This document shows, piece after piece, positions 7,082 through 59,584 of a DNA stretch of 64,000 nt (positions are counted from its first letter, which is position 1; the number at the start of each line of letters is the position of its first letter). The DNA comes from Candidatus Bathyarchaeota archaeon. Its GTDB lineage: Archaea; Thermoproteota; Bathyarchaeia; Bathyarchaeales; Bathyarchaeaceae. The notes beneath the pieces are model-generated. The model saw nothing but the letters and a program-made list of their open reading frames with translations, did no database searches and was not told the DNA's origin. The stretch covers positions 74,837 to 138,836 of the forward strand of contig JASFHP010000002.1 in assembly GCA_050123155.1 (NCBI GenBank). The letters are read 5' to 3'. Position numbers and translations under genes: made by a program.

Positions 7082-7135
7082 CATATTTGAAGACTAATAA
7101 CAGTGTATTGTTGAAAAACAGCTTTTTTCAGGAAA
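7082..7135 (+). repeat. Dispersed intergenic element, copy 1 (the most diverged copy)
   Basis: Sequence CATATTTGAAGACTAATAACAGTGTATTGTTGAAAAACAGCTTTTTTCAGGAAA. It abuts the methyltransferase stop codon at 7136-7138. Confidence 0.8.
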
Positions 7136-7975
7136 CTAGGCGGGCAAGTTTTTCTTTATTTGCTGTTCCGCGGTTTCTACATAGGATTCATCTATTTCGA
7201 AGCCGATGTAGTCGACGCCCAGCCTCTGGCAGGCAACCGCGGTGTTGCCGATTCCCATGAACGGGTCCAAAACAAGTTTGGTCCGTTCTAGTCCATGAAA
7301 CTTGATGCACATCATCGGCAGCTTAGGCGGAAACGCGGACGGATGCGGTCTCTGCCTCTTCCGGGACCATATTGTCTCATACGGAATAAACCATGTGTCC
7401 CCCCTGTCTCTCAGGTCTCGAACAGCCCTTTTCCACCGTCCAATGTTACTCTTATCCTGATACGGCACACCCACCGCCAACTTGTCAACCTTGACTTCGC
7501 CGTCTTTGGTGAACTGGAAAACATACTCATGGCATTTGTTCACGAAACGTTCACTGTTGACAGGCTTAAAGTGTCCCACCGCAATGTCCCCCCTGATGTT
7601 CGGGTAATCGCCAACGTCCTCCTTTGGTATGGCAATCGATTTTATCCAGTGAATAACGTTCTGCAGCACGAAATGCTTCCTGAACCTGAATGCCACCTCC
7701 CAAGCAACCCACGGGTCCCTAGGCTTGTATCCAATGTTCAAGAAGAATGAGCCGGAGTCGCTGAGAACCCGTTTGCATTCCTCTGCCACCGTTTCCATCC
7801 AATCAAGATACTGCCCTCTGGAAACCGAGTCATCATACACGCCATATTTTATTCCCAGATTATAGGGTGGAGATGTCACAATCACGTCCACTTCCCCATC
7901 CTCAAGGAACCGCCTCATCCCCTCAACGCAGTCACCGACGATTATCCTGTTCTTTTCACATCTCACCAAACTCAC
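7136..7975 (-). CDS. Beta-class DNA methyltransferase (N4-cytosine or N6-adenine), apparently orphan
   Basis: Motif IV ([10 protein letters not shown]) is near the N-terminus and motif I ([13 protein letters not shown]) is near the C-terminus, which is the beta-class circular permutation. No restriction endonuclease gene is adjacent. Confidence 0.85.
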
Positions 7976-8013
7976 GTCACCCTACAAACATCAAGTGACC
8001 AACAACAAACATT

Positions 8014-8068
8014 CATATTAGGAGCCTAATAACACTTCATTGTTGAAAACAGCCTTTTTTCAGAAAAA
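8014..8068 (+). repeat. Dispersed intergenic element, copy 2
   Basis: Sequence CATATTAGGAGCCTAATAACACTTCATTGTTGAAAACAGCCTTTTTTCAGAAAAA. It lies 39 nt from the methyltransferase start codon. Confidence 0.85.
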
Positions 8069-8192
8069 CCAAGCATCAACCCAAGAATCTTTCGAAATTG
8101 GACGCGCAACGAATAGTTTCAAAAGAATCACCCTATGTTGATTCGGTAACAAACGTTAAATAGAATATTCTTTGAGTTTTAAAGGGGAGAAA

Positions 8193-10563: not shown

Positions 10564-10641
10564 TGGTGGGGCCGCCCGGATTTGAACCGGAGTCCCGAGA
10601 GTCCAAGTCTCAGAGCCTGGACCAAGCTAGCCGACGGCCCC
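10564..10641 (-). tRNA. tRNA-Pro (anticodon UGG), CCA encoded
   Basis: Hand-folded. The acceptor GGGGCCG pairs with CGGCCCC. The T arm is TCCGG-TTCAAAT-CCGGG. The anticodon stem TGAGA/TCTCG carries the loop CUUGGAC. Total length is 78 nt. Confidence 0.9.
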
Positions 10642-12153: not shown

Positions 12154-12198
12154 CCTCATCTTTGAACACATGAATGAAAAACCTTCTAGAAAGGTGAA

Positions 12199-12422
12199 TG
12201 GTGGGGCCGGCCGGAGTTGAACCGACGACCTTTACCCGGAACAGTTCATCCCCGTCCCTACGGGTTTCTCCTCGCTCCAGAATCTCGTCATCCCAGATAC
12301 TGGTCAGCAAACCCATGCTTATTTCTGGAGCCCTTAACGGCTTGCACCGTTTGCCGGTACGACTGTCGTCATCCCTCTCTAGCGCCCCATCAAAAGACAG
12401 AGCGTGGCTAGACTACGGCCCC
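12199..12422 (-). tRNA. tRNA-like gene of 224 nt with about 146 nt of intervening sequence; anticodon and isotype not resolved
   Basis: The 5' end GGGGCCGTAGTCTAGCC (acceptor plus D-arm start) pairs with the 3' end AGGTC-GTCGG-TTCAACT-CCGGC-CGGCCCC-A-CCA (variable region, T arm, acceptor, CCA). No 5-bp anticodon stem with U33 could be built by hand. Confidence 0.6.
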
Positions 12423-12449
12423 ACATCCAACAACAATTTACAAGTTCAC

Positions 12450-12457
12450 AATATATA
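12450..12457 (-). promoter_or_regulatory. Candidate TATA box (TATATATT on the minus strand) for the intron-containing tRNA
   Basis: The minus strand reads GGAAACG-TATATATT, followed 27 nt later by the GGGGCC 5' end. This is typical archaeal TATA-to-TSS spacing. Confidence 0.45.
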
Positions 12458-12475
12458 CGTTTCCTGAACACAAGC

Positions 12476-16669: not shown

Positions 16670-18187
16670 TTGCCTGAACTTCGAGAAAACGAGCAGAAAA
16701 CCTTGCTTGCCCTACAGAAGCTGAGAGGAAGAGCCCCAGTTGATCAGATAATAGAAACCAGCGGTTTAGCTCACGCAGCAGTTATGCGGGCTGCCCTCAC
16801 ACTAACAGAAAAAAAACTAACCACAACACATGAAACAAACCAAACCTTGATCATATTGAACGAGGAAGGGAGAACTTACGCCGAAATAGGGCTCCCAGAG
16901 AGGCGACTCCTCAATTCCCTAGTCAAGCTGGGCGGCGAAGCAAAGGTTAACGATGTTGTTGAAGAGGCAGGCTTAGAAAAGAAGTTTATATCCGTTGCTT
17001 TGGGGTGGCTTAACCGAAAGGGCTGGGCGACTATAAAACAGGGAAAACTCACAATTCCGAAGAAAAAATGGACACAACAATCTCCCGGAGATGACGAAAA
17101 ACTTCTGGAACTCCTATCTGAAAAGGGGTCTCTGACCTTTGAGGAATTAAACCCGAAAGAGCAGGAGGCTGTCGCTGTTTTGAAGGGACGGCAACTTGTG
17201 GAAACCGAAGAGAAGACCCTAAGAGAACTGGAATTGACCGACGATGGATGGAGTCTGGTCAAGAAGGGAATCAAAGTTCAGGAAGAAGTCAGCCAGCTAA
17301 CCCCCGAGCTCATCAGAACAGGAAACTGGCGGAAAGTAAAGCTTCGAAGGTTCAATGTGGAAGCTCCGGGTCCCGAAGCCCTTCTCGGAAAGATTCATCC
17401 AGCCCAGCAGATAATTCAGCACATCAGAGAAATCTTCTTGGAGATGGGCTTCACCGAGATTCGAGGATCCATAGTTCAGACGGCATTCTGGAACTTTGAC
17501 GCCCTGTTCCAGCCTCAGGATCACCCCGCCAGAGACGTGGTGGACACCTTCTATCTGGCTCATCCAGAAAAGGGGAAGCTGCCAGAAAAAGATGTTGTGA
17601 AGGCGGTTGCCGCCACCCATGAGAACGGCTGGACGACCGGTTCAAGGGGCTGGGAGTACCGTTGGAGCCCAGAAGAGGCAAAAAGATTGGTGCTCAGAAC
17701 CCATACAACAGCTGAAACTATCCATTACCTGTCTGAACATAAGGAGCCGCCAGTTAAGGTCTTCTCCGTGGACCGGGTGTACCGCAACGAGAAGCTGGAC
17801 TACAAGCACCTAGCCGAGTTCTATCAGATCGAAGGAATAATCATGGACAAGAAGGTGACGCTGCGGGACCTCATGGGAACCCTAACAGAATTCTACCATA
17901 AACTTGGGCTGGAAAAGGTGCAGTTCTGGCCCAGCTACTTCCCCTACACAGAGCCTTCCATGCAGTCCACAGTCTACGTTCCAGAGCTGAAAACTTGGAT
18001 TGAACTGTGCGGAATGGGCATTTTCCGCCCAGAGGTTTTGTCTCCTTTCGGGGTGAAGCATCCTGTTTTGGCTTGGGGAGGCGGCTTAGAGCGGCTGATT
18101 CTTCTTAAGCTCGGCATCGAGGACATCAGGCTGTTATACAAGAACGATTTGGGTTGGATAAGGAGGACGCCAGTATGCCAACGCTAA
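16670..18187 (+). CDS. pheS: Phenylalanyl-tRNA synthetase alpha subunit
   Basis: N-terminal winged-helix repeats are followed by class II motifs (FQPQDHPARD, RTHTTA, FYQIEG, GGGLERL). The start is TTG, after GGAGAGGAA. Confidence 0.9.
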   Translation: MPELRENEQKTLLALQKLRGRAPVDQIIETSGLAHAAVMRAALTLTEKKLTTTHETNQTLIILNEEGRTYAEIGLPERRLLNSLVKLGGEAKVNDVVEEAGLEKKFISVALGWLNRKGWATIKQGKLTIPKKKWTQQSPGDDEKLLELLSEKGSLTFEELNPKEQEAVAVLKGRQLVETEEKTLRELELTDDGWSLVKKGIKVQEEVSQLTPELIRTGNWRKVKLRRFNVEAPGPEALLGKIHPAQQIIQHIREIFLEMGFTEIRGSIVQTAFWNFDALFQPQDHPARDVVDTFYLAHPEKGKLPEKDVVKAVAATHENGWTTGSRGWEYRWSPEEAKRLVLRTHTTAETIHYLSEHKEPPVKVFSVDRVYRNEKLDYKHLAEFYQIEGIIMDKKVTLRDLMGTLTEFYHKLGLEKVQFWPSYFPYTEPSMQSTVYVPELKTWIELCGMGIFRPEVLSPFGVKHPVLAWGGGLERLILLKLGIEDIRLLYKNDLGWIRRTPVCQR

Positions 18188-19842
18188 CCTTGGATAGAGA
18201 CCGTTTCTCCTCTTATGTTGGACGAAACGTCACCGTGAAGGAGATGGCTAAACGGCTCCCGTGGCTGGGAACCGACACCGAAGAGGTTGGCTCCGACTAC
18301 GTGAAGATCGAGTATAACCCGAATCGAGTGGATTTCTGTAGCTACAGTGGAGTGGCCAGAGCCTATCGGGGGCTCATGGGCTGGGAAACTGGAATGCCCA
18401 ACTTTAAGGTTAAACAGGGAAAAATCACACTGAAGGTGGACAAGAGTGTGGCTGAGGTCAGACCATACGTTGTTTCCGCCGTTGTTCGAGACTTAAACGT
18501 TGACTATGAGGCAATCAAGGAGCTGATGGAGATGCAGGAGGCTCTCCACTGGATGATAGGCAGAGACAGAAAAAAAGCCTCCATTGGCGTCCACAACTTG
18601 GACGCTGTTAAGCCCCCCTTCTCGTATGTTACCTGTGCCCCAGACGAAATCAAGTTTGTTCCGTTAGACAAGACAGAAGAGATGACCCCTCAGGAAGTCT
18701 TGGAGAAACATGAGAAAGGCATGGCATACAAGAGTGAAGTGGACTGGGCTTCAAGGTACCCACTGATTGTGGACCGAAATGGCGATGTTCTCTCTTTTCC
18801 ACCCATAATCAACGGCGAATTAACCCGTGTTGTCGACGATACGCGGAACCTTTTCATTGACGTCACCGGCACCGAAATGAACGCCATATCAAGAAGCTTG
18901 AACGTTCTCGTCACTGCCTTAGCGGACATGGGCGGCACCATAGAAAGTGTTCCTGTTAAGTATTCTGACCAAGTTTTGGTTACTCCAGACCTTACTCCTC
19001 AAAAGATGAAACTGCACGTGGATTACTCCAACGAACGTTTGGGCCTCAACTTTTCGGAAGCACAAACCATAGAGGCTCTGCAGAAGTCTAGGCTTGACGC
19101 AGAAAAGGTTGAAAAAGGAGTTTTGGATGTTACGATTCCCGCGTACCGAACCGACATACTGCATGAAATCGATTTGGTTGAAGAGGTCGCCATCGGCTAC
19201 GGCTACTATAATTTGACGCCAACGATTCCGGCGACGGTGACAACGGGCAAGCAGCATAGGGTCAGTGAGGTAGCTGCGGATGTTAGGCAGATAATGGTTG
19301 GTTTAGGTTTTGTGGAAGCCCTGAATTTTGTTCTCGCCAACGAGGTTGACCATTACCAGAAGATGCGGCGAAAACCTGAGGGGCTTGTGACTTTGGCGAA
19401 CCCTGTTTCCACCGAATATTCGATGATACGGAACGATCTGCTGCCTAGCCTAATGAAGAACTTGGCAGACAGCAAACACCACGTTTTTCCTCAGCGAATG
19501 TTCGAAGTCTCCGACGTAATCAAACTCGACGACAACTCTGAGACAGGCACAGAACGGAGAATACATGTTGCAGCAGTTACATCGCATCCAACAGCCAACT
19601 TCACCGAAATCAAGTCCGCTCTGGAGGCTTTGTTGATGAACCTTGGCCTAAAAAAGTGGGCTGTAAAGGAGGCTGAACATCCGAGCTTCCTGCAGGGAAG
19701 AGCAGCCACGGTTTCATTCAAGGGCACAGAACTGGGTTTTGTTGGAGAGATTCATCCAGAAGTCCTCAACAACTTTGAACTGGAAAATCCTACAAGCGCA
19801 TTCGAAATAGACCTGCAAAAAATTGTAGATGCCGCCGAGTGA
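18175..19842 (+). CDS. pheT: Phenylalanyl-tRNA synthetase beta subunit
   Basis: ATG 18175 follows AGGAGGA and overlaps the pheS stop. The product MPTLTLDRDRFSSYVG... has the B3/4 and B5 domain pattern of the archaeal beta subunit. Confidence 0.9.
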   Translation: MPTLTLDRDRFSSYVGRNVTVKEMAKRLPWLGTDTEEVGSDYVKIEYNPNRVDFCSYSGVARAYRGLMGWETGMPNFKVKQGKITLKVDKSVAEVRPYVVSAVVRDLNVDYEAIKELMEMQEALHWMIGRDRKKASIGVHNLDAVKPPFSYVTCAPDEIKFVPLDKTEEMTPQEVLEKHEKGMAYKSEVDWASRYPLIVDRNGDVLSFPPIINGELTRVVDDTRNLFIDVTGTEMNAISRSLNVLVTALADMGGTIESVPVKYSDQVLVTPDLTPQKMKLHVDYSNERLGLNFSEAQTIEALQKSRLDAEKVEKGVLDVTIPAYRTDILHEIDLVEEVAIGYGYYNLTPTIPATVTTGKQHRVSEVAADVRQIMVGLGFVEALNFVLANEVDHYQKMRRKPEGLVTLANPVSTEYSMIRNDLLPSLMKNLADSKHHVFPQRMFEVSDVIKLDDNSETGTERRIHVAAVTSHPTANFTEIKSALEALLMNLGLKKWAVKEAEHPSFLQGRAATVSFKGTELGFVGEIHPEVLNNFELENPTSAFEIDLQKIVDAAE

Positions 19843-19913
19843 AAGCTCCTTCTTTGGATAGAAAGCTTAATGTTACCTTATGCCTGTCTCTTTATTTGCG
19901 ATGATAGTGGGCT

Positions 19914-20085
19914 GGAGCAATAATCCCGCCGGAACCTTAATGGGCTCATGCAGACGGACCCGACAGAGGCTGGTGACTTTCATCTACCGTTGACGGAGGG
20001 TTTACCCAGGCATGGGACACGGTGGGCGCGGGCAAAATCCAACCCACGTTTGAGAGAGCTCGTCTGAGAAGAGCGCCTTTGCTCC
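19914..20085. ncRNA. Candidate structured RNA or leader element between pheT and cdhA; strand and identity unknown
   Basis: The segment is visibly more G+C-rich than its spacer flanks. It is closed by GGAGCAA (19914-19920) pairing with TTGCTCC (20079-20085). Further complementary pairs exist inside (see finding). Confidence 0.3.
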
Positions 20086-20217
20086 ATCTGTGAGGATGAG
20101 AGTTAGTTGCGTGGGACACAAAGCCCGCGATACTTGCATTCCCAGAAAATAAATGGCAATTTCCGAAAAGTTAAATAAGACTCCTCATAATTTCCTTCAT
20201 TCTTAACTAGTTTAAAG

Positions 20218-27880: not shown

Positions 27881-28591
27881 TTAAGACCGTTTGGACTCGA
27901 GGAGTTTTCTTCTTTTGTCCTCTCCGGGCTTAAGCACGTCTTCCGCCATCTTGAACTGTCTCTCGTAAAGGTGGCAGTTCTTGCTGTGAAAAATGAGTTT
28001 GCCCGTTTTGATGCCTAGGTTTCCCCTTCTGTTAATCTCTGAAACTAGAGCTTCGTTGAATATCTGGATTCCAGCTATGTTGGCCGGCAGTCCTGCGTAG
28101 GCATCCCAAGACCTGAAGTAACATGTCAAGTTTAGTTGATTATCCAGTATTTCGGTGTCAATCAAACTCAAACATGGAGGCTCATGTTTCTTGTCATCAG
28201 CTAAGCTTTTTTTGATGTCTTCTGGTAGTCGAATCACAAAGGTCACCTGTCTGTCTCTCTTCTCCTCCGCGTATCTCTTAACGGCTTCTTCCACCTGATC
28301 CACAGGTTCTCTCATTCTGCTTCCATAAGTATACGTTTCGTCCTCTATTGCTCCAGACCATAGATACTTCAGAGCATACCATTGAACATACTTCATGTCG
28401 CAGGGAGCCATAAAATCAACTAAGGGACGATTCTCAGGATGGGCGATCTCGATGCTCAGGTTCAACTTCTTAGTCTTGGAAACCTCAGAGCCATATCCCA
28501 CCTCAAAGGAGTCTCCATTGACCCAGATCTCCTGTAAAACCTTGTACCAAGCATCTGGGCAATCAAAGGCTTTAACCACAGCATACTTCAA
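27881..28591 (-). CDS. thyA: Thymidylate synthase ThyA-family protein (divergent archaeal type)
   Basis: LNLTCYFRSWDAYAGLPANIAGIQIF aligns with the ThyA active-site segment (C..Q.YQRS.D...G.PFNIAS). The size is 236 aa. Confidence 0.7.
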   Translation of the reverse strand: MKYAVVKAFDCPDAWYKVLQEIWVNGDSFEVGYGSEVSKTKKLNLSIEIAHPENRPLVDFMAPCDMKYVQWYALKYLWSGAIEDETYTYGSRMREPVDQVEEAVKRYAEEKRDRQVTFVIRLPEDIKKSLADDKKHEPPCLSLIDTEILDNQLNLTCYFRSWDAYAGLPANIAGIQIFNEALVSEINRRGNLGIKTGKLIFHSKNCHLYERQFKMAEDVLKPGEDKRRKLLESKRS

Positions 28592-28724
28592 GAGGAACCC
28601 TCCACTCTGCTTACTTCTTGCAGGCGCCTCTTATAATTGCTTTTCACACTCCACGTTTGGGTGTGTGACAAAAAAAGGATTTAAAAAAGATTGAATTGTG
28701 AAGATAAGATTCTAGCTGATTAGC

Positions 28725-28877
28725 TTAATACCTATTTCTTCTCGGGGGTCTTCGTTTAGCATAACATTCTCGGCAGTATACCGGTCTGTTAGGGTCAGGT
28801 TTGAAAGGAACTTGACATTCTTTTCCGCACTCGGCGCAGACTGCATTGTGCATTTCTCTTGGTCTTCCATAAGACAT
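28725..28877 (-). CDS. Small zinc-ribbon protein with a basic tail, 50 aa; below the ORF-track cutoff
   Basis: ATG 28877 lies 7 nt after GGAGGTG: MSYGRPREMHNAVCAECGKECQVPFKPDPNRPVYCRECYAKRRPPRRNRY. It contains CxxC-x17-CxxC, and the TAA stop is at 28725-28727. Confidence 0.65.
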   Translation of the reverse strand: MSYGRPREMHNAVCAECGKECQVPFKPDPNRPVYCRECYAKRRPPRRNRY

Positions 28878-29093
28878 TCGGATCGCACCTCCTATTCATT
28901 AAGAGAATTAGCTTCTCAGAACACTAATTCGGAAATGGTTAACCCTAAACTCACTTATAAAGTTGTGCACAATCATCTAAAAATGAATTGCCAATTTAAT
29001 ACACTTGAGTAGGGGCGCTGACTTTTTTGTATGCAGTTAATCGTCCCGTGATTGCCTATTCAGGTAGTAATCTAATGTTACGGTATGTTTTCT

Positions 29094-29333
29094 CTAAGTA
29101 GAGATAATCTTAGGTTGCTTCCTTTTTTCAGAACTAGTTTCTGTTCTTAGTGCAACACTATTTCCACATTCTTTGCATTCAACCGCAACACTGTCCATGG
29201 AAATTAGCCTGAAAGGTGTTAACCGCCCACATTTTTGGCATTTAGCAAAACGGAGTCTTACCCGGTCTTTTTTATGGATGGTTTCAAGTAACGCCGTAAA
29301 TATGTTATAATCCTTTGGTTTTGAGATTCCCAC
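29094..29333 (-). CDS. Small zinc-ribbon protein, 79 aa
   Basis: Track ORF containing CQKCGR...CKECGN. It lies directly downstream of the wHTH gene 29340..29651. Confidence 0.5.
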   Translation of the reverse strand: MGISKPKDYNIFTALLETIHKKDRVRLRFAKCQKCGRLTPFRLISMDSVAVECKECGNSVALRTETSSEKRKQPKIIST

Positions 29334-29339
29334 GAGAAC

Positions 29340-29651
29340 TCACCGCAATAAAGCTTCTGTTTCAACAGGTTCTCCTGGTCTCAGAAGGTTTGACATTTCC
29401 CTGTAATTTTTGATGTATTGCTTACCTTTAGCGGTTGCTTCGTAAAACTTCTTTCCATTCTCTACGTAGACCCTAAGGAACCCTTTTTCAGTTAGAAAAG
29501 AAAGATACTCGTTTACTTGGCTGAAACTCAGATTTGCATTATACATGATCCTGGTCTTCAGCTGGCTTTCCCTCGTTGCTTCTATTATTTCCGCCATTAT
29601 ATGTAGTCGGTCTCTCCGGTCCCAAACTTTTTGCACAGCACGATTTATCAA
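29340..29651 (-). CDS. Archaeal winged helix-turn-helix protein
   Basis: IMYNANLSFSQVNEYLSFLTEKGFLRVYVENGKKFYEATAKGKQYIKNY shows the typical wHTH pattern. A paralogous architecture occurs at 42297..42689. Confidence 0.65.
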   Translation of the reverse strand: MINRAVQKVWDRRDRLHIMAEIIEATRESQLKTRIMYNANLSFSQVNEYLSFLTEKGFLRVYVENGKKFYEATAKGKQYIKNYREMSNLLRPGEPVETEALLR

Positions 29652-29816
29652 TACAATTCCTCGCTAATTCAGTTCAGTAATTTTTCTCTGTACTTGTCAT
29701 GGTTAAAATACTGTGCTTCCTCAGAAAACATATTACAAAAAAAAGAATATACCAAAACTTATCCGATGCATGTTTGCTTCGGCGCAACAGGTGTTTACTC
29801 TTTTGTGCGGAATCTG

Positions 29817-30374
29817 CTAAATAATTGCTAGGTGCTCGAGGAGTATTTTCAGTCCTATGGCTATTAAAATTAGACCGCCTAATGATTCCACTCTGTTTTT
29901 TAAGACGCGTCCAAATCTGCCGCCAATATAGACGCCGAAAAAAGACAGGGAAAAGGTAACAACTCCAGTTGTGATTGCAGGAGTTGTGGCTGAAACATTG
30001 AGAAGAGAAAGGCTGAGACCAACGGCTAAAGCGTCAATGCTAGTGGCAATCGATAATATCAACAATACTTTGATGCTGAGCGAGCTGACGAATCTAGCGG
30101 ATTCCTTTCGGATAGACTCATAAATCATTCTGGAACCAATAAATACTAGAAGAAAAAAAGCTACCCAATGATCATAGTCTGAAATCAAATCTATAAGATG
30201 TACGCCAGCATGCCATCCGATGATGAGCATGATTCCCTGAAAGAACCCGAAGAAGGCGGCTATTTTGAGGGCATTAGAGGTTTTGAATGTTTTAGTTGCT
30301 AATCCGTTTGCTATGGCTACCGAAAACGAGTCCATTGCCAATCCTAAAGCAATCAACAGTGTTGTTATGTCCAT
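29817..30374 (-). CDS. mntP: Manganese efflux pump MntP family (DUF204 repeats)
   Basis: The product MDITTLLIALGLAMDSFSVAIANG... has six TM helices, and a second repeat carries SIDALAVG. Confidence 0.8.
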   Translation of the reverse strand: MDITTLLIALGLAMDSFSVAIANGLATKTFKTSNALKIAAFFGFFQGIMLIIGWHAGVHLIDLISDYDHWVAFFLLVFIGSRMIYESIRKESARFVSSLSIKVLLILSIATSIDALAVGLSLSLLNVSATTPAITTGVVTFSLSFFGVYIGGRFGRVLKNRVESLGGLILIAIGLKILLEHLAII

Positions 30375-30519
30375 CAGTCTTCACTTTTGGATTTATAGTT
30401 TTTGAATAAGCGTACACCTAAAAACGTTTCTGAGCTAGAATTTCGAAGTCTTTCATAATTGAGAGCAATCTTAATAAGTGGAAAGTGGGTCGAGGTCGGT
30501 ATTCACGTTCGGGTAGTGT

Positions 30520-31626
30520 GTGACGGTAGTAATCTCTGAAACTGTCGACGATAAAACTGGAAACGGTCTTTCTATTCCCGTAGACTTGATTCGCACCTTC
30601 GGCATTATATTGGTGGTGCTGCTTCATGCATCCAACGAATACTACACTGCCATACAGCAGACCTCTCTTGAATTGCCGGTGTATTGGTGGTCATCCACCA
30701 TTTACAAGTCCTTTGCTCTGCCCTGCGTTCCCCTGTTCGTTATTCTGAGTGGCGCCCTGTTGCTTCAGCCCTCCAAAACTAACGAGCCTATCCGTGTTTT
30801 TTTGAAAAAGCGGTTTAATCGTATTGGTTTTGCTTTCATGTTCTGGACTGCAGTCTATCTTGTGTGGGCATTCCTAGTCAGCCAGACACCCGTCACTTTA
30901 GGCAATGTTGTCGAGGGGGCACTCTACAGTTTATTCTCTGGCTCTTACTATCATTTCTGGTTTCTTTATCTGATAGCTGGTCTGTACCTGCTTACCCCTA
31001 TTTTGCGTAAAATAGTGTCAGTTAAGGACCCTAAACTTCTCAAGTACCTCATACTTCTGTGGTTTGTAGATGTAGCCATTGTGCCCCTTATCCAATTGAT
31101 TACCGGGTATTCTCTGAACGACACTGTTTTTGTGGTTGGCGGATTCATAGGCTATTTCGTTTTGGGTGTATACCTGCAGAAGGTAAAGGTACGTTCTTCA
31201 ATTTTGCATGTGCTCCTTTTCTTGAGTTTCATTTTTACAATAGTTAGCACTTGGTTTATGCACTTTCATTTTCAGTCTATAGGCCAAAACTACTTCTTTT
31301 TTGGTTATCTGTCTGTGAATGTGATACTGGCGTCGGTTACTATGTTCTTGCTTTTGAGCAAGTTAACGGTCAATTGGTCAAGAGACGTTCATCCTCTTGT
31401 CACCAGGGTTGTGCATGCAATCGGCAGAAACACTTTGCCAATCTACATGCTCCATTTAATTGTTATGGAAACGCTTCAAAGAGGCTACCTTGGGTTTAAG
31501 TTGAGTCTCACAGTCATGAATCCGATTATTGGAATCCCGATTATAACAGTAGCTACCCTCTCCATCACGTTTGGATTAATTCTTCTCATGAAAAAAGTGC
31601 CTGTTTTGAGGACACTTATCGGCTAA
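30520..31626 (+). CDS. Membrane acyltransferase family 3 protein
   Basis: It has about 10 TM helices and the N-terminal motif IRTFGIILVVLLHA typical of acyltransferase_3. Confidence 0.7.
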   Translation: MTVVISETVDDKTGNGLSIPVDLIRTFGIILVVLLHASNEYYTAIQQTSLELPVYWWSSTIYKSFALPCVPLFVILSGALLLQPSKTNEPIRVFLKKRFNRIGFAFMFWTAVYLVWAFLVSQTPVTLGNVVEGALYSLFSGSYYHFWFLYLIAGLYLLTPILRKIVSVKDPKLLKYLILLWFVDVAIVPLIQLITGYSLNDTVFVVGGFIGYFVLGVYLQKVKVRSSILHVLLFLSFIFTIVSTWFMHFHFQSIGQNYFFFGYLSVNVILASVTMFLLLSKLTVNWSRDVHPLVTRVVHAIGRNTLPIYMLHLIVMETLQRGYLGFKLSLTVMNPIIGIPIITVATLSITFGLILLMKKVPVLRTLIG

Positions 31627-31651
31627 GCATGTACAAAAAAACATTGTGAAA

Positions 31652-32347
31652 TCAAGAGCTTTCCGTGGAAAGAATGATTGCCTCGTAAACTTCGTTGGCT
31701 ATGACTGCTGCTCCCTCGCTGTCAGGATGTATACCGTCCCAGAAATATTCTGGGTGATTTTCTAATGCGGCGTAAACATCAATAATGAGCAATCCTTCAT
31801 CGTTTGCTATCTCCTCAATCCGGGGGATTATCCCATCCAACAAGTTCTCATTTTTCAGTTCATATTCGTTGTCGAAAAGTGGAGGCGGTTTCGCGAGAAA
31901 AATTTTCGGATTACTTTCTAGTGCTTGGATTTCGTTTATCAGTTTCATGTAGTCGAAAACAAAATTTTCAATTGATTTGTAGTGGTCTGTGCGGGCATCG
32001 TTGGTTCCAAGCATGATAATGGCAATATCAGGCATGAAGTTTTTCGCTTTGACAAACTCAATCTGATCGATGTAGGGTTTGCCTGTGTCGAGCAAAACTG
32101 TTGAGCCGCCGACGCCGAAATTTCCAACTGTATAACTGGTTCCTAGAAGACTCTGTAGTTCATCTGGGTAGTAAGGCAGCTCTGTTATGCTGTCGCCGAT
32201 GCATGCAACACGGATTAAGTTGGCGCTGCTGTTGTTGTATACCGTGTTTTCAAGAATTATTGCTAATATACTCAGAGTTACTAGCAGAACGCAAATGCAT
32301 ACTACAACCTTTTTTACGTTTATGCTGATCCTTCCTCGAGTAAACAC
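31652..32347 (-). CDS. SGNH/GDSL hydrolase with an N-terminal membrane anchor
   Basis: Block I is ACIGDSITE, block III is GTNDA, and block V is DGIHP. Confidence 0.75.
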   Translation of the reverse strand: MFTRGRISINVKKVVVCICVLLVTLSILAIILENTVYNNSSANLIRVACIGDSITELPYYPDELQSLLGTSYTVGNFGVGGSTVLLDTGKPYIDQIEFVKAKNFMPDIAIIMLGTNDARTDHYKSIENFVFDYMKLINEIQALESNPKIFLAKPPPLFDNEYELKNENLLDGIIPRIEEIANDEGLLIIDVYAALENHPEYFWDGIHPDSEGAAVIANEVYEAIILSTESS

Positions 32348-32469
32348 AGGACTGTTGAACTTTACTATTCATTAATCTAAAAAGATTTCTGAGCAAGATC
32401 ACGAATAATACAACAGATTCAACCTATGCAATGCGCCCTTTTCTACGCGAAAGTCAAAAAGTTCTTGTT

Positions 32470-33012
32470 CTAAACGATGTATCGGTAGGCGACGTATTTT
32501 CCAGCAGTCTGACTTTTTCTAATAACCCTAACTATGTCTCCTGGTTTGCCGCCCACAGCTATGATGGCAGGGTCGTGAGCGTTGATTCTGGGCAACTGGT
32601 AAGGTTGCACTTTATGGTCTTCCAGAAATTTTTCTTTTTCCTCAGGTGTGAGAAGTTCATGTTTCGACACAAAATCGTGGTCGAAAATTTGGAACGACGG
32701 AAAGTTTTTGGGAATCAGTTCTATTCCGAGTTTTTTGGAGCGGGTCTTGGCGGTGTGGGTGTACTTTCCGATTGTGGTGATGATTCCCTTTTCAACTTTT
32801 GCATCATCCATGGCTTTCTTAAGTTGCGTAACGTACGCAACTCCCACTGTTCCGTCGGTGGTGACAGCCCACAAAATCGCTTTTTTGCCATTTTTCATTT
32901 TGAGTTTGTAGCTGATGGCGTTTTTTATGTCTTCCTTTTTTGTTATCTTGTAACCGCGAAGTTTTATGAGAACCTTGGTTTTCTTCTCTACCAACGTTTC
33001 TTTGGAACTCAA
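32470..33012 (-). CDS. rpoH: RNA polymerase subunit H with an additional N-terminal Rpb5-N-like domain, 180 aa
   Basis: The C-terminus HELLTPEEKEKFLEDHKVQPYQLPRINAHDPAIIAVGGKPGDIVRVIRKSQTAGKYVAYRYIV matches the RpoH/Rpb5-C signature. About 100 extra N-terminal residues are present (LRGYKITK...VGVAYV...KGIITT...ELIPKN). The start is TTG 33012, 7 nt after GAGGAA. Confidence 0.8.
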   Translation of the reverse strand: MSSKETLVEKKTKVLIKLRGYKITKKEDIKNAISYKLKMKNGKKAILWAVTTDGTVGVAYVTQLKKAMDDAKVEKGIITTIGKYTHTAKTRSKKLGIELIPKNFPSFQIFDHDFVSKHELLTPEEKEKFLEDHKVQPYQLPRINAHDPAIIAVGGKPGDIVRVIRKSQTAGKYVAYRYIV

Positions 33013-33102
33013 CTATTCATTCCTCAAGCTAGACAAGTATTTAGAGGGAAAGCCGTCTGCAAACCCTTAAACTTTACGCTATTTCAGCTTCACTTAAGAT
33101 GC

Positions 33103-33330
33103 TTATTCTTCGGTTACAGTGATCACAGCTGCGGGACAGGAATCTTCTGCCTCTCTGGCGTTTTCAATCTCTTCATCATCAAAGCCCCCCGAAGATGCGC
33201 TGGCATCGGTTTCTCCCCCTATCACGGTTGACTTTCCTTCCTCGTCAGGTTCGAAATGAGCCGGGTCTATGCTGTAACATGTGCCGCAGGCGATGCATCC
33301 CTCTCGTTCGATCTCAATCTTATACTTCAC
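33103..33330 (-). CDS. Small single-cluster ferredoxin, 75 aa
   Basis: CIACGTCYSIDP...SCPAAVITV is the pattern of a monocluster ferredoxin. An acidic stretch lies in the middle. Confidence 0.8.
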   Translation of the reverse strand: MKYKIEIEREGCIACGTCYSIDPAHFEPDEEGKSTVIGGETDASASSGGFDDEEIENAREAEDSCPAAVITVTEE

Positions 33331-33475
33331 TTGAAATCAACACCTAATGTTAGTAAAGTTTGACAATTAACCAATTAAAACTTGTCATCAGCCGCAATCG
33401 CCGTTTTGATGAAGGAAATAAACACACAACCGCAAACTTGGCAGCCCCAGAAGAGATACGGCAGAACCCCACTCG

Positions 33476-33530
33476 CATATTAGGAGCCTAATAAAGGTAC
33501 ATTGTTGAAAACAGTCTTTTTCAGAAAAAA
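33476..33530 (+). repeat. Dispersed intergenic element, copy 3
   Basis: Sequence CATATTAGGAGCCTAATAAAGGTACATTGTTGAAAACAGTCTTTTTCAGAAAAAAA. It lies 146 nt from the ferredoxin start codon. Confidence 0.85.
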
Positions 33531-44378: not shown

Positions 44379-44543
44379 ATGAAGATTTTAGCCATAGACA
44401 TAGGTGCTGGAACCGAAGACATCCTGCTTTATGATGACCAAAAACAGAGTGTCGAGAACTGCATGAAGATAATTACTCATACACCTTATCATAGAAAATT
44501 TAGTCTAAGTCATCCCATGGTCCAGGCCAATCAGGAAAAGTGA
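44379..44543 (+). pseudogene. N-terminal fragment homologous to the start of gene 46505..47575
   Basis: MKILAIDIGAGTEDILLYDDQKQSVENCMKI... matches MKILAIDIGAGTKDILLYNSVLENIENCIKM... at 46505. Similarity ends after about 30 codons, and the frame then runs into the 3' end of the convergent gene 44500..45825. Confidence 0.5.
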
Positions 44544-45825
44544 TGGTTGCATTTGCTTCTTTCATAAGCTTCAAGGGATCAACAGGCACTTGTACTCCAT
44601 CTTGCCACTGAAAGCCCATGACAATGGAGTGATCTGCATTTGGATCGTTAGCGTCCTTTCCCATCATCAAAGCATGCGATTCAGTGAAAACAAAATCTCT
44701 AGCATTAGAGGTTTCAACACTAGTCTCCTCCAAAGCCTCAATCACAGCATCAGTCTCAATAGTCCCAGCCCGTTCAATAGCATCTGTCAAAATAAACTTT
44801 ACACCATCATAAACAGTAGCTGCAGTCCAAGTAATAGCTTCACCCCACCTATTCATGTACGCATCTCTGGTCGGTAATGTTTTACTAGTAAATGGATAAC
44901 CTGTTGTAGTGGGAACATTGCCAAAATCCATATGATTACATTTTCCCTCTGTCCATTCCCAACCTCTAGGATCAGAAGCCAACAAATTAGTCCCCCCAAA
45001 AACAAGCATCGGAGATTGACGATCATAATACTCCTTAACGAAGGGTATACCCCCATCCATTGCAATCATCGGAACCATCACTTCTACTCCTGCAGCCTCA
45101 GCAGCAGCAAAATAGCTCGAAAAATCAACAGTTCCTAATGGAAACGTTCCTTTGTATACAAGCTCAAAACCATTTTCTGGAAGAAAAACATCCAAGCCTT
45201 CCTTCATGCCCATACTCCAACCCAAATCTTCAACCAAATAGCCAACTTTATTGAATCCAGTCATCTCTCTGATGTGAATGAGGCTATCTGTCATCCCTAA
45301 CTTTGCACAAGTATCATTGAACATGGTACTAAAATAGTACTTGAATGTGTCATAGTCATCCAAAACCCTCTGTGTTATCGCATCAGGGATTGACATTCCT
45401 GAAATGCAGATAATTTTGTGTTGAGCAATGATATCTTGTAATAGAATTTCCGATCCACCAGCCCCTCCCACAATAAAATCTACATTATGAATTGTTATTA
45501 GCTTGGTTAAGGCATTAGTTAGAATAACTGAATCTGTTCCCCCATCATGGTCCTCTCCAATCAATTCTACCTGTCTTCCTAATATGCCGCCTTCTGCGTT
45601 GATTTCTTCAACAGCCAATATTGCAGCTTGCCAATTCGGTTTACCCACTACACCATCTAAATCTCCTAAGAAACCTATCTTGATAGTTCCAGAAGTCTGC
45701 TCTTCTGCACCTAACAACACATATGTAACTCCTACACCTACTGCAGCAACAACAATTATAGCAACCAGAATAATTGTTTGAATTTTAGTTAATGCTCTGG
45801 AATTAAACAATGAGCTTCTCCCCAT
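44500..45825 (-). CDS. ABC transporter substrate-binding protein (branched-chain amino acid / LivJ-like type I PBP), membrane-anchored
   Basis: An N-terminal TM anchor is followed by IKIGFLGDLDG...GGILGRQVELIGEDHDG, the typical Peripla_BP_6 pattern. No permease or ATPase genes are adjacent. Confidence 0.8.
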   Translation of the reverse strand: MGRSSLFNSRALTKIQTIILVAIIVVAAVGVGVTYVLLGAEEQTSGTIKIGFLGDLDGVVGKPNWQAAILAVEEINAEGGILGRQVELIGEDHDGGTDSVILTNALTKLITIHNVDFIVGGAGGSEILLQDIIAQHKIICISGMSIPDAITQRVLDDYDTFKYYFSTMFNDTCAKLGMTDSLIHIREMTGFNKVGYLVEDLGWSMGMKEGLDVFLPENGFELVYKGTFPLGTVDFSSYFAAAEAAGVEVMVPMIAMDGGIPFVKEYYDRQSPMLVFGGTNLLASDPRGWEWTEGKCNHMDFGNVPTTTGYPFTSKTLPTRDAYMNRWGEAITWTAATVYDGVKFILTDAIERAGTIETDAVIEALEETSVETSNARDFVFTESHALMMGKDANDPNADHSIVMGFQWQDGVQVPVDPLKLMKEANATITFPDWPGPWDDLD

Positions 45826-46504: not shown

Positions 46505-47575
46505 ATGAAGATATTAGCAATAGACATAGGTGCAGGCACTAAAGACATTCTACTTTATAATTCAGTACTCGAAAATATTGAAAATTGCATAAAGATGGTT
46601 CTGCCCTCCCCATCCCAAGTTTTTGCAGAGAAAGTAAAAACCGCAACTCGCAAAGGTAAGGACCTCTTTGTTAAGGGTGACACGATAGGCGGAGGCGCCT
46701 TTTCGCATGCCCTGAAAAAACATGTTGAAGCTGGATTTAGAGTCTGCATGACAGAAAATGCAGCATACACCGTAAGAAACAATCTGGGTCAAGTCAGAGA
46801 ACGGGGAATCGAAATCATCCACGATTCTGGACCAGAAAACTTCAAAGGAGAAACAATAATTCTTGAAGAAGTAAACATCGGTAAACTGCGTGGCTTATTG
46901 AAGTTTTTCGGAGAACCCTTTTCGGACATAAATTTTGTTGCTGTTGCAGTTCAGGACCATGGAGTTTTCCCAGAGGAAATGAGCAACAGACGGTTCCGCA
47001 TCAACAAAATTAGAGAACTGCTGGAAAAGAATCCGAAGCCTGAAGCATTCGCCTTCAGGGAAAACGAAATTCCCCCATATTATCCACGAATGAAGTCCTC
47101 TGTGCTTGCCTCGAAGAGACAGCTGCCGAATGCACAGGTGGTGGTTATGGACACTTCTCCGGATGCGATACTTGGGTGTCTAATGGACCCGGTTGTAGAG
47201 AAGGCTGATCCGATTCTGGCTGTTAATGTGGGCAATGGGCACACCATGGCTGCAATAATATCAGGGGACGAAGTCACCGCAGTATTGGAGCATCATACGC
47301 GACTGTTGAATCCGCAGAAGATGGAGAGGCTTCTAAGGGACTTTGCAGACGGAAAGCTCTGCGATGAAGAAGTTTTCGAAGACAATGGACACGGCATGTT
47401 CTATCTGAGCAAACCAGCGGGCTTCTCTGAAATCGAAAAAGTGGTGGTGACGGGGCCAAACAGGAAGGTCTTAGCCAAAACAAATCTCAATGTTCATTTC
47501 GCAACTCCTGCAGGCGACGTGATGATGACTGGGCCCATCGGCTTGGTTGAAGCAACCAAAAGAAAACTGTTGTAA
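46505..47575 (+). CDS. ASKHA (actin-like ATPase) fold protein; it resembles DUF1786 (recollection, unverified)
   Basis: The N-terminal phosphate-1 motif is MKILAIDIGAGTKD. A second nucleotide-binding-like motif is AVNVGNGHT. Confidence 0.55.
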   Translation: MKILAIDIGAGTKDILLYNSVLENIENCIKMVLPSPSQVFAEKVKTATRKGKDLFVKGDTIGGGAFSHALKKHVEAGFRVCMTENAAYTVRNNLGQVRERGIEIIHDSGPENFKGETIILEEVNIGKLRGLLKFFGEPFSDINFVAVAVQDHGVFPEEMSNRRFRINKIRELLEKNPKPEAFAFRENEIPPYYPRMKSSVLASKRQLPNAQVVVMDTSPDAILGCLMDPVVEKADPILAVNVGNGHTMAAIISGDEVTAVLEHHTRLLNPQKMERLLRDFADGKLCDEEVFEDNGHGMFYLSKPAGFSEIEKVVVTGPNRKVLAKTNLNVHFATPAGDVMMTGPIGLVEATKRKLL

Positions 47576-48629: not shown

Positions 48630-48684
48630 CATATTAGGAGACTAATAACAGAAGATTGTTGAAAAACAGCTTTTTTCAGGAAAA
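48630..48684 (+). repeat. Dispersed intergenic element, copy 4
   Basis: Sequence CATATTAGGAGACTAATAACAGAAGATTGTTGAAAAACAGCTTTTTTCAGGAAAA. It lies 60 nt from the start codon of the CitG-like gene. Confidence 0.85.
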
Positions 48685-48871
48685 GCGACAGCAAGAATTA
48701 ATATCATATCAACTTGGAAACCACCAAGTTAGGAACCAAAAAAGGTTTAAAAACTGCAAAGAAAGTTAAAAAGGAGAACATAGAAGGCAGATGCTTTAGA
48801 TTTAAGCTTGTTGAGGTTCAACTCTTAACAGTTTAAGATTTATTGTTCAAAAATGTAGTGTGAGTCTATAG

Positions 48872-59242: not shown

Positions 59243-59401
59243 TTGTCTTGCCTCGACTTTCTAGATCTTAATTTTGCAACTATGCCTCATTTAATAATGG
59301 TTTCGTATGGATTCTTTGAACTCGTATAGACAACCAGAACAGTCTAAACAACCAACTTTTGGAACATGGTCAGCTAGCAACTGTTCTTTTTTGTCTCTTG
59401 G

Positions 59402-59457
59402 TTTTTCAGAAAAAAAGACTGTTTTCAACAATGTACCTTTATTAGGCTCCTAATATG
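59402..59457 (-). repeat. Dispersed intergenic element, copy 5 (inverted orientation)
   Basis: The reverse complement reads CATATTAGGAGCCTAATAAAGGTACATTGTTGAAAACAGTCTTTTTTTCTGAAAAA. Its first 46 nt are identical to copy 3. It lies 128 nt from the psmA start. Confidence 0.85.
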
Positions 59458-59584
59458 ATGTGCCCTTGTTTACTGAGGCTTCAATTTTTGTGGTGTGAAA
59501 TACAAGGATTGTTAACTGAAAATGGTGATAAATACGAAAAGGTTTTTAGTTCCGTCTTATTACATCAGAGACAAAACGTAGTTA

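Follow-up and report, generated by a model that had tools for sequence, protein, structure and literature searches.

Sequence evidence for a lineage-restricted, REP-like intergenic repeat in Bathyarchaeia and their tailed viruses

Archaeal dispersed repeats of the MITE type (miniature transposable elements with inverted repeats) include the SM elements of Sulfolobus and the repeats of Methanocaldococcus. Bathyarchaeia are among the most abundant archaea of sediments. To our knowledge, Bathyarchaeum tardum is their single cultivated representative, and we know of almost no information on their non-coding DNA. The bacterial repetitive extragenic palindromes (REPs) are 20–40 bp long and carry a GTAG or CGTC tag (PMC3733652). 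The present analysis concerns a repeat, here named E, found in a 64,000-nucleotide stretch of Candidatus Bathyarchaeota archaeon (GenBank assembly GCA_050123155.1, contig JASFHP010000002.1, positions 74,837–138,836 of the forward strand). This whole 64 kb stretch is referred to as the window. On sequence comparison, E is a real, previously undescribed and lineage-restricted dispersed intergenic repeat of 55–65 bp, confined to one Bathyarchaeia lineage and its tailed viruses. It is a variant of the small extragenic palindromic repeat kind. The best explanation, to which we assign a probability of about 0.5, is a dispersed repeat resembling REPs and bacterial interspersed mosaic elements (BIMEs): a module of duplex DNA that would be recognized by protein, as its conserved half-sites suggest, and whose copies would recombine with one another. 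A first-pass annotation of the window had proposed a shared promoter/operator module, a promoter-associated small RNA, or a REP- or MITE-like element. The last alone comes close: the behaviour of E fits it, while the features that define REPs and MITEs are lacking. That annotation had recognized no described archaeal repeat family, and no description of E was found in the literature searched, including a paper on Bathyarchaeia viruses.

Five copies were first reported, at 7082–7135, 8014–8068, 33476–33530 and 48630–48684 on the forward strand and at 59402–59457 in inverted orientation, and all are present there. The 16-nt palindrome motif has 10 strand matches in the window against 0.33 expected from dinucleotide-preserving shuffles, and the A-run/T-run pattern of the second module has 5 against 0.20. 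A search of the 64 kb with an nhmmer profile of 64 family members gives exactly five copies and no weaker additional ones. The density is thus about one per 13 kb, solely between genes and in either orientation relative to them. In a five-way alignment, similarity begins abruptly at CATATT and stops after TTTTTTCAGRAAAA, and the flanks are unrelated. The left (CATATT) boundary is sharp; the right one often lies about 8 nt beyond the end first assigned (…GAAAAACCAAGCA).

Alignment, profile matches and flanking gene annotation define the individual copies. Copy 1 (7082–7137, forward strand) is of a TATTTG sub-type. At its GAAAA end it touches the stop codon of a DNA methylase gene (7136–7975, reverse strand), and an AsnC-ligand-domain gene starts 77 nt from its CATATT end. 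Copy 2 (8014–8074, forward) is located between the divergent methylase (reverse) and DUF3160 (forward) genes and carries the right-hand extension …GAAAAACCAAGCA. Orthologues of copies 1 and 2 are kept in E44_bin4 (locus L025). Copy 3 (33476–33530, forward), the left breakpoint of an inversion of about 26 kb considered below, illustrates the inner parts: dyad 1 (33478–33493), a variable 6-nt spacer (33495–33500), an invariant ATTGTTG (33501–33507), and dyad 2, the A-run/T-run module (33505–33524). Copy 4 (48630–48688, forward) lies between divergent CitG (reverse) and GT4 glycosyltransferase (forward) genes. Copy 5 (59398–59457, reverse), 128 nt upstream of psmA, forms the right breakpoint of this inversion. 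Over 46 nt copies 3 and 5, which are inverted relative to each other, match at 100% identity, as had been noticed. The flanking gene products first named (AsnC/RAM-type ligand domain, N6/N4 DNA methylase, 4Fe-4S ferredoxin, CitG and proteasome alpha) are correctly identified, and the distances from CATATT end to start codon (77, 39, 146, 60 and 128 nt, respectively) are also correct. The orphan N6/N4 methyltransferase gene is bracketed by two direct copies of E (7082–8074). The same E–methylase–E arrangement occurs in E44_bin4, with another gene beyond the left copy, and the unit may have been moved or reshuffled as a block.

The range of the family was established by scanning one genome per species, from 185,579 species, with the pattern CTAATAA-N5–8-ATTGTTGAAAA. 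Whole E, with the same boundaries, is present in at least about 65 of the 111 matches listed. All whole-E matches listed come from Bathyarchaeia metagenome-assembled genomes (MAGs), namely Ca. Bathyarchaeum bin115 (CP070820.1), E44_bin4 and about 12 further bins; the bacterial matches listed share the pattern alone, with no similarity in the flanks. A single apparent exception that carries E is L014 (CAYQWZ010000012.1), a 2.7 kb contig assigned to a Saccharibacteria bin. It is probably mis-binned, because a Bathyarchaeia locus (L055) matches its flank with 78% identity. A scan of metagenome contigs anchored on module 2 alone contributed 42 further copies. Counting Bathyarchaeia MAGs (more than 13), metagenome contigs and 10 related contigs of tailed viruses, there are 131 distinct copies in total; the genomes were read as 8 kb pieces. 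The window itself is 82–88% identical in nucleotide sequence to pieces of E-bearing Bathyarchaeia MAGs, and its proteasome alpha subunit shares 93% identity with a protein of Ca. Bathyarchaeum, which places the window in this lineage.

A column census of the 131 copies gives the general layout. (i) The left part reads (T/G)-C-A-T-A-T-T, then A (101 copies) or T (30), then G, and is followed by a 4-nt variable centre. (ii) The middle consists of C-T-A-A-T-A-(A/G), a 6-nt variable spacer and A-T-T-G-T-T-G-A-A-A-A. (iii) The right part comprises a 5–6-nt variable centre and T5–7-C-(T/A)-G-A-A-A-A, often followed by CCAAGCA. Near-invariant blocks (CATATT.G, CTAATAA, ATTGTTGAAAA and T5–7C) therefore alternate with three variable windows, to which variation is confined; it is discrete and not diffuse. 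E is a mosaic of two dyad-symmetric sites, TATTAG-N4-CTAATA and TGAAAA-N5–6-TTTTTC, joined by the invariant ATTGTTG and the variable spacer. Spacer alleles TACTTC, CAGnnn and AGGTAC recur across genomes. The centre of dyad 1 is found in both orientations (GAGA/TCTC, GAGC/GCTC), and the terminal GAAAAAC also appears as GTTTTTC, mostly in copies with another copy after them. Some genomes carry head-to-tail arrays of two or three copies with a period of 84–110 nt, and one (CAZJLG01) has a dimer of an A-type and a B-type copy at no fewer than four loci. Module 2 can occur alone (L007).

These features suggest the first step of the proposed mechanism. Invariant half-sites with free centres would be the footprint of one or two sequence-specific proteins that bind duplex DNA, and the stretches considered as candidate protein-bound dyad sites are CATATTAGGAGACTAATAA and ATTGTTGAAAACAGCCTTTTTTCTGAAAA. 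The binder could be an architectural, recombination or mobilizing protein.

One sub-family has extra conserved flanks, TTCACAyGTTCaTGCTG on the left and CTGCGCTGCACAC…AGTTCACA on the right, giving a unit of about 105 nt. It is carried by L013 (1668–1772 and 7673–7777) and also by L111, L060, L066, L080 and L007. In L013 two inverted units bracket a tRNA gene and the S12–S7–EF-1alpha operon. A composite transposon between them was considered and rejected, as the interior tRNA, S12, S7 and EF-1alpha genes are core genes.

Of the two palindromes, the first had been described as an inverted repeat and the second as a hairpin. Folding, RNAalifold and covariation analysis indicate that they are kept as sequence, not as structure. 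As RNA, E folds at −4 to −7 kcal/mol on either strand. Folding z-scores against shuffles are near 0 in six of eight folds; copy 4 gives −3.0 and −1.5. RNAalifold returns no consensus structure for 54 diverse copies. In the same 54 copies, 86.5% of the cells of the specified dyad-1 helix pair, yet compensatory changes in the stems, proposed earlier as a test, are absent: the dyad-1 covariation score, 0.025, is below the 0.041 averaged over shuffles. One dyad-1 position has an uncompensated T·T mismatch in 13 copies, and in 33 the innermost bases do not pair. The right arm, CTAATA, is near-invariant (each position in at least 130 of 131 copies) and the left arm varies, an asymmetry not expected for a stem. 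Rfam yields no match at the gathering threshold; noise alone appears at an E-value of 10 or below, with no CRISPR-DR family. A structured small RNA was rejected on the absence of an Rfam match, of folding beyond that of shuffled sequence, of an RNAalifold structure and of covariation, and with these structure and Rfam tests all negative the promoter-associated small RNA of the first-pass annotation falls as well.

The second step of the proposed mechanism is recombination between copies, which would lead to (i) homogenization of the family, (ii) swapping of alleles, (iii) head-to-tail arrays, and (iv) inversion or reshuffling of the DNA between copies. Persistence and allele turnover are seen at orthologous sites. 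Conservation in related genomes, a matter raised at the outset, holds across species: in all six independent pairs for which both flanks could be compared (flank identity 71–97%), E is present in both genomes, and none of the six comparisons reveals an empty site. The copies flanking the methylase gene are 89% and 94.5% (copy 2) identical to their L025 orthologues; the gene itself is 82% identical. The exact psmA sequence of the window matched no record. In a comparison based on homologues of psmA, E lies at about −130 in the same orientation in L124–L127 and L128, where the PsmA protein is 96% and 91% identical, respectively. Orthologous copies are 84.8% identical, little above the 78.5% ± 7.7% of random pairs. 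Orthologues often differ in spacer allele, and three alleles, AGGTAC, TACTTC and CAGCGT, occur at the orthologous psmA site. Invariant positions thus stay constant while the variable windows are exchanged among a few states, as copy-to-copy conversion would produce.

Rearrangements provide the second line of evidence. L037 is a 6.9 kb contig of a related MAG (CAZYJH010000093.1) with a single copy of E. To the left of this copy, L037 is collinear with window positions 28163–33379, the ferredoxin side of copy 3. To the right, it is collinear with the reversed window from 59401 down to 53160, on the distal side of copy 5, and the switch falls inside E. As L037 joins the left flank of copy 3 to the distal flank of copy 5, the window carries an inversion of about 26 kb relative to L037 (33531–59397), bounded by inverted copies 3 and 5. 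This segment would be the window's own example of recombination between copies of E. L034 matches L015 in the left flank and copy and L106 in the right flank and copy, and L040 shows the same pattern with L067 and L085, so that triples of the form X–E–Y, X–E–Z and W–E–Y are seen. The gene upstream of the psmA copy differs in all four genomes examined. Retention of E on both products of a rearrangement is predicted by exchange within E; a random break would leave E on one side. Homologous recombination between short repeats is sufficient for these junctions, and a dedicated recombinase is at most a possibility.

The same material bears on another explanation, that E is a non-autonomous mobile element of the REP/REPIN or MITE kind, copied by an enzyme that recognizes two hairpins of single-stranded DNA. 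We consider this doubtful. Its appeal lies in a multi-copy, strictly intergenic family with neutral orientation and sharp ends, in discrete sub-families common to several genomes, in the dimer repeated within CAZJLG01, and in the occurrence of E in viral genomes. There is also a copy in bin115 that is absent at the matching window site, and the small flips at the dyad centres (GAGA↔TCTC, GAAAAAC↔GTTTTTC) point to a hairpin or a cruciform as intermediate. E, however, has no terminal inverted repeats, no evident target-site duplication and no GTAG/CGTC tag; the orthologous comparisons show no empty site; no transposase-like gene recurs near the copies in the 8 kb pieces; and the uncompensated T·T mismatch and lack of stem covariation are at odds with hairpin recognition.

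The relation of E to genes was the centre of the original description, in which the CATATT end always points at a gene start. That holds for all five window copies and fails family-wide, with 28 starts and 28 stops opposite the CATATT end, and 26 starts and 30 stops opposite the other end. The window pattern is therefore a small-sample one, with a chance of about 3% under a 50 : 50 split; three of the five copies are in divergent regions, in which either orientation points at a start. E-bearing intergenic regions are tandem in 28 cases, divergent in 10 and convergent in 12, close to the background by count (65/18/18%). In tandem regions E is on the strand of the genes in 15 cases and on the opposite strand in 17. 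Position, by contrast, is not neutral, as E tends towards gene 3' ends and keeps away from promoters. The median distance to a start codon is 200 nt (1 of 54 within 25 nt). At least 10 long open reading frames (ORFs) run into the CATATT end, stopping within 21 nt.

The promoter/operator option is consequently unsupported by family-wide orientation, and variable spacing and a separate psmA promoter speak against it too. In its full form, E would be a portable unit with TTATTAG as TATA box, CTAATAT as proximal element, a start site a few nucleotides beyond CATATT, and the palindrome as operator. The resemblance to a TATA box is real: TTATTAG looks like the local TATA boxes of tRNA-Gln (TTTATTAAT), tRNA-Pro (GTTTTATAG) and psmA (GTTTTTAG), and the TATA-like arm (CTAATA on the forward strand) is the most invariant part of E. 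The methylase start lies 38 nt from E with no other obvious TATA box between them, and the five window copies do point at gene starts. Spacing to orthologous starts nevertheless varies, from about 39 nt in the window to about 150 nt in L025 for the methylase gene, and from 146 nt in the window to about 66 nt in L037 for the ferredoxin gene. The position expected for the transcription factor B recognition element (BRE) is the variable spacer of E, and E is seldom within 50 nt of a start. At psmA, four-way alignment reveals a BRE/TATA-like block, ATACGAAAAGGTTTTTAGTTCCGT (59532–59555, forward), that is invariant in four genomes, 30–53 nt before the ATG; E lies 75 nt further upstream. One of the four, L129, keeps the block with no E. 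The block also resembles the BRE/TATA regions of the 5S rRNA and tRNA genes of the window. Judged by this alignment, ATACGAAAAGGTTTTTAGTTCCGT is the psmA core promoter and E is not. A leaderless start at the terminal ATG of E was likewise rejected; it is out of frame with the methylase ORF. A general promoter role is thus very unlikely. TTATTAG may contribute to individual promoters, for example that of the methylase gene 38 nt away, which is not what the family is for.

The main rival to a protein-recognized, recombining repeat is found at the other end of genes. E would here be a bidirectional gene-end module, a transcription terminator or insulator that punctuates transcription units: polymerase arriving from either side would meet oligo-T (T5–7 on the forward strand, two T4–5 runs on the reverse strand), and ribosomes would meet stop codons. 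The T-runs are indeed conserved on both strands, and such a device works in both orientations, which fits the neutral orientation of E. Stop codons lie at a median distance of 54 nt from E, 18 of the 58 adjacent gene ends being within 25 nt, and E is nearer the 3' end of the upstream gene in 25 of 32 tandem regions. Three copies lie just 3' of tRNA genes and supply the first T-run there (L029, L059, L013), and the viral copies begin 1–2 nt after a stop codon, at a module boundary. Several findings nevertheless make this reading unlikely. A fifth of the copies, including three of the five in the window, lie between divergent genes, where there is nothing to terminate. T5 runs between the stop codon and E number 11 against 9.9 expected from gene ends that have no E; they are not depleted, so that E does not appear to stand in for a terminator. 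Some 40 invariant positions are more than a T-run signal would need, CATATT, CTAATAA and ATTGTTG being among these positions, and the hairpins are thermodynamically marginal. If E is instead a recombining module of protein-recognized duplex DNA, its effects on neighbouring genes (oligo-T on both strands, stop codons in most frames, the TATA-like TTATTAG) would be side effects and not the reason for the family.

E extends beyond host chromosomes. An IMG/VR scan identified ten related head-tail virus contigs, each with one copy at the same conserved site; a search of GenBank phages gave no match. Among the products encoded are a phage tail-tube protein, one resembling HK97 gp10 and a large terminase, and one of the contigs overlaps a Bathyarchaeia MAG contig. 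The viral copy starts 1–2 nt past the stop codon of an 84-aa gene and is followed by a small ORF and then the terminase gene. The virus cluster is flanked by host-like genes (pyrF, ABC ATPase). A provirus att site was rejected: the copies of L121 and L116 lie within the viral cluster and not at its edges. The head-tail cluster, of about 10 kb, recurs at 76–92% nucleotide identity in at least ten contigs (L112–L122; for example L121, 4817–14406) and is not in the window. No replication or lysogeny genes were recognized in the parts seen, and it could be a defective provirus or a gene-transfer-agent-like cluster.

By sequence match, E is common to host and virus DNA. This may reflect recombination capture, a module-boundary signal, or a packaging or recombination site. 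A bolder variant of the last takes E as a recognition site that chromosome and virus-like cluster have in common, with the hundred-odd chromosomal copies serving as sites of packaging initiation or recombination. This idea arises because the viral copy sits where pac/cos sites lie, directly upstream of the small ORF and large terminase gene. If it were true, host DNA would be packaged or exchanged via E, as in transduction or by a gene-transfer agent, and frequent transfer with recombination would explain the shuffling of alleles and the rearrangements at copies. We rate it as highly improbable.

Several observations weigh against the preferred reading of E as a recombining, protein-bound REP-like repeat. 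No binding protein, transposase or recombinase was identified among recurrent neighbours in the 8 kb genome pieces, and the recurrent neighbouring families are ordinary metabolic and surface genes. Gene conversion alone, with no protein partner, could yield the sequence conservation. Part of the apparent invariance is inflated by the search patterns themselves: CTAATAA in the genome scan, CATATT with ATTGTTGAAAA and TTTTT in the viral scan, and ATTGTTGAAAA with TTTTTC in the metagenome scan. Loci were picked for containing E, so absence in relatives is under-sampled. E is missing upstream of psmA in L129 (psmA 87% identical), and a copy in bin115 (L111) is absent at window positions 20135–20217, where synteny also breaks. 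Synteny often breaks between operons anyway, and part of the association with junctions could be coincidence. Genes in the loci were called by a crude longest-ORF rule (at least 100 aa), which makes the distance statistics approximate.

The element is useful in several respects. It can serve as a lineage marker and as bait for finding a sequence-specific DNA-binding protein, and it provides a sequence link between Bathyarchaeia hosts and a family of head-tail viruses. Its presence at the junctions of inversions and reshufflings would partly explain why gene order is poorly conserved between close relatives. E can also cause mis-joins in MAGs, and in annotation its TATA-like and T-run motifs may be taken wrongly for promoters or terminators.

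Other features of the window were recorded in passing. A G+C-rich non-coding block of about 240 nt (19893–20140, forward) lies downstream of the ORF at 18154–19842. It is about 97% identical to bin115 (L111), against 88% for the neighbouring genes, has no Rfam match at an E-value of 1 or below, and folds on the forward strand at −87.7 kcal/mol (z = −1.9). We regard it as a candidate for an unclassified structured RNA. About 50 nt beyond this block bin115 has a copy of E, which is not so in the window. Two 57-nt stretches (44379–44435 and 46505–46561) that are 84% identical lie 2.1 kb apart at the starts of ORFs on opposite strands (44500–45825, reverse; 46505–47575, forward), which suggests paralogous gene starts. 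Finally, a 26-nt stretch at 12199–12224 is 92% identical to the 3' end of tRNA-Pro (10564–10589), 1.6 kb away. It lies inside or adjoining the ORF at 12198–12467, with no tRNA called there, and may be a tRNA fragment of the kind left by an integration event.

Comparison with known systems places E closest to the REP/BIME repeats, and several other kinship proposals can be set aside or limited. Kinship with the repeats of CRISPR arrays was dropped: there is no CRISPR-DR match, no array structure and no CRISPR array in the E loci. The resemblance of the E end ATTGTTGAAAAC to the ATTGAAAG/C handle of CRISPR repeats was dropped with it, as was that of AGACTAA in E to what we take to be a Pyrococcus repeat. 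CRISPR arrays combine repeats of 24–40 nt with unique spacers of 30–45 nt, whereas E is mostly solitary and its rare arrays have a period of 84–110 nt, 55–65 nt of it conserved. The chromosome-segregation site of SegB is a 13-bp TCTAGA-S-TCTAGA motif located mostly inside genes (bioRxiv 10.1101/2025.02.07.637068). It was rejected as a relative: E lacks the motif and lies strictly between genes. TTATTAG and CTAATAT look like the TATA box and proximal element of local archaeal BRE/TATA promoters, but E keeps no fixed orientation or distance to genes and the true psmA promoter is elsewhere.

Recombinase core sites and phage cos/pac sites share with E dyad-symmetric arms around a free central spacer. 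As with such sites, a copy is kept at both products of rearrangement, and the viral copy is directly upstream of terminase genes. For a classical att or dif site, however, one E per 13 kb or so is far too many; the arms are short (6–7 bp), and there is no linked recombinase gene. For the junctions, ordinary homologous recombination is an equally good explanation. MITEs and the Correia elements of Neisseria are, like E, small non-coding dispersed intergenic repeats with sub-families, and they can hold promoter-like or terminator-like signals that affect neighbouring genes. E differs from MITEs in that its ends, CATATTAGG on the left and CTGAAAAACC on the right, are not complementary and thus form no terminal inverted repeats. 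Its profile has no flanking direct repeat, orthologous comparisons give no empty sites, and no parent insertion sequence was found.

E departs from the REP/BIME pattern in size and build, having 55–65 bp with two different dyads in place of one palindrome of 20–40 bp. Its dyads are A/T-rich and thermodynamically weak, unlike a stable G+C-rich stem-loop, and its ends read CATATT… and …CTGAAAA(CC), with neither tetranucleotide GTAG nor CGTC. Its clusters are head-to-tail and not alternating, its host is archaeal, and no gene for a REP-associated tyrosine transposase (RAYT, IS200/IS605-type HUH) was found among its neighbours in the 8 kb genome pieces. The likenesses are nonetheless extensive. 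REPs and BIMEs of E. coli, Pseudomonas and Stenotrophomonas are, like E, short, palindrome-containing and strictly extragenic, with many copies in either orientation. Like E, they prefer the 3' ends of genes and occur singly or in mosaic clusters. They are also, like E, substrates for rearrangement, and in E. coli they are protein-binding sites, as the half-sites of E would be.

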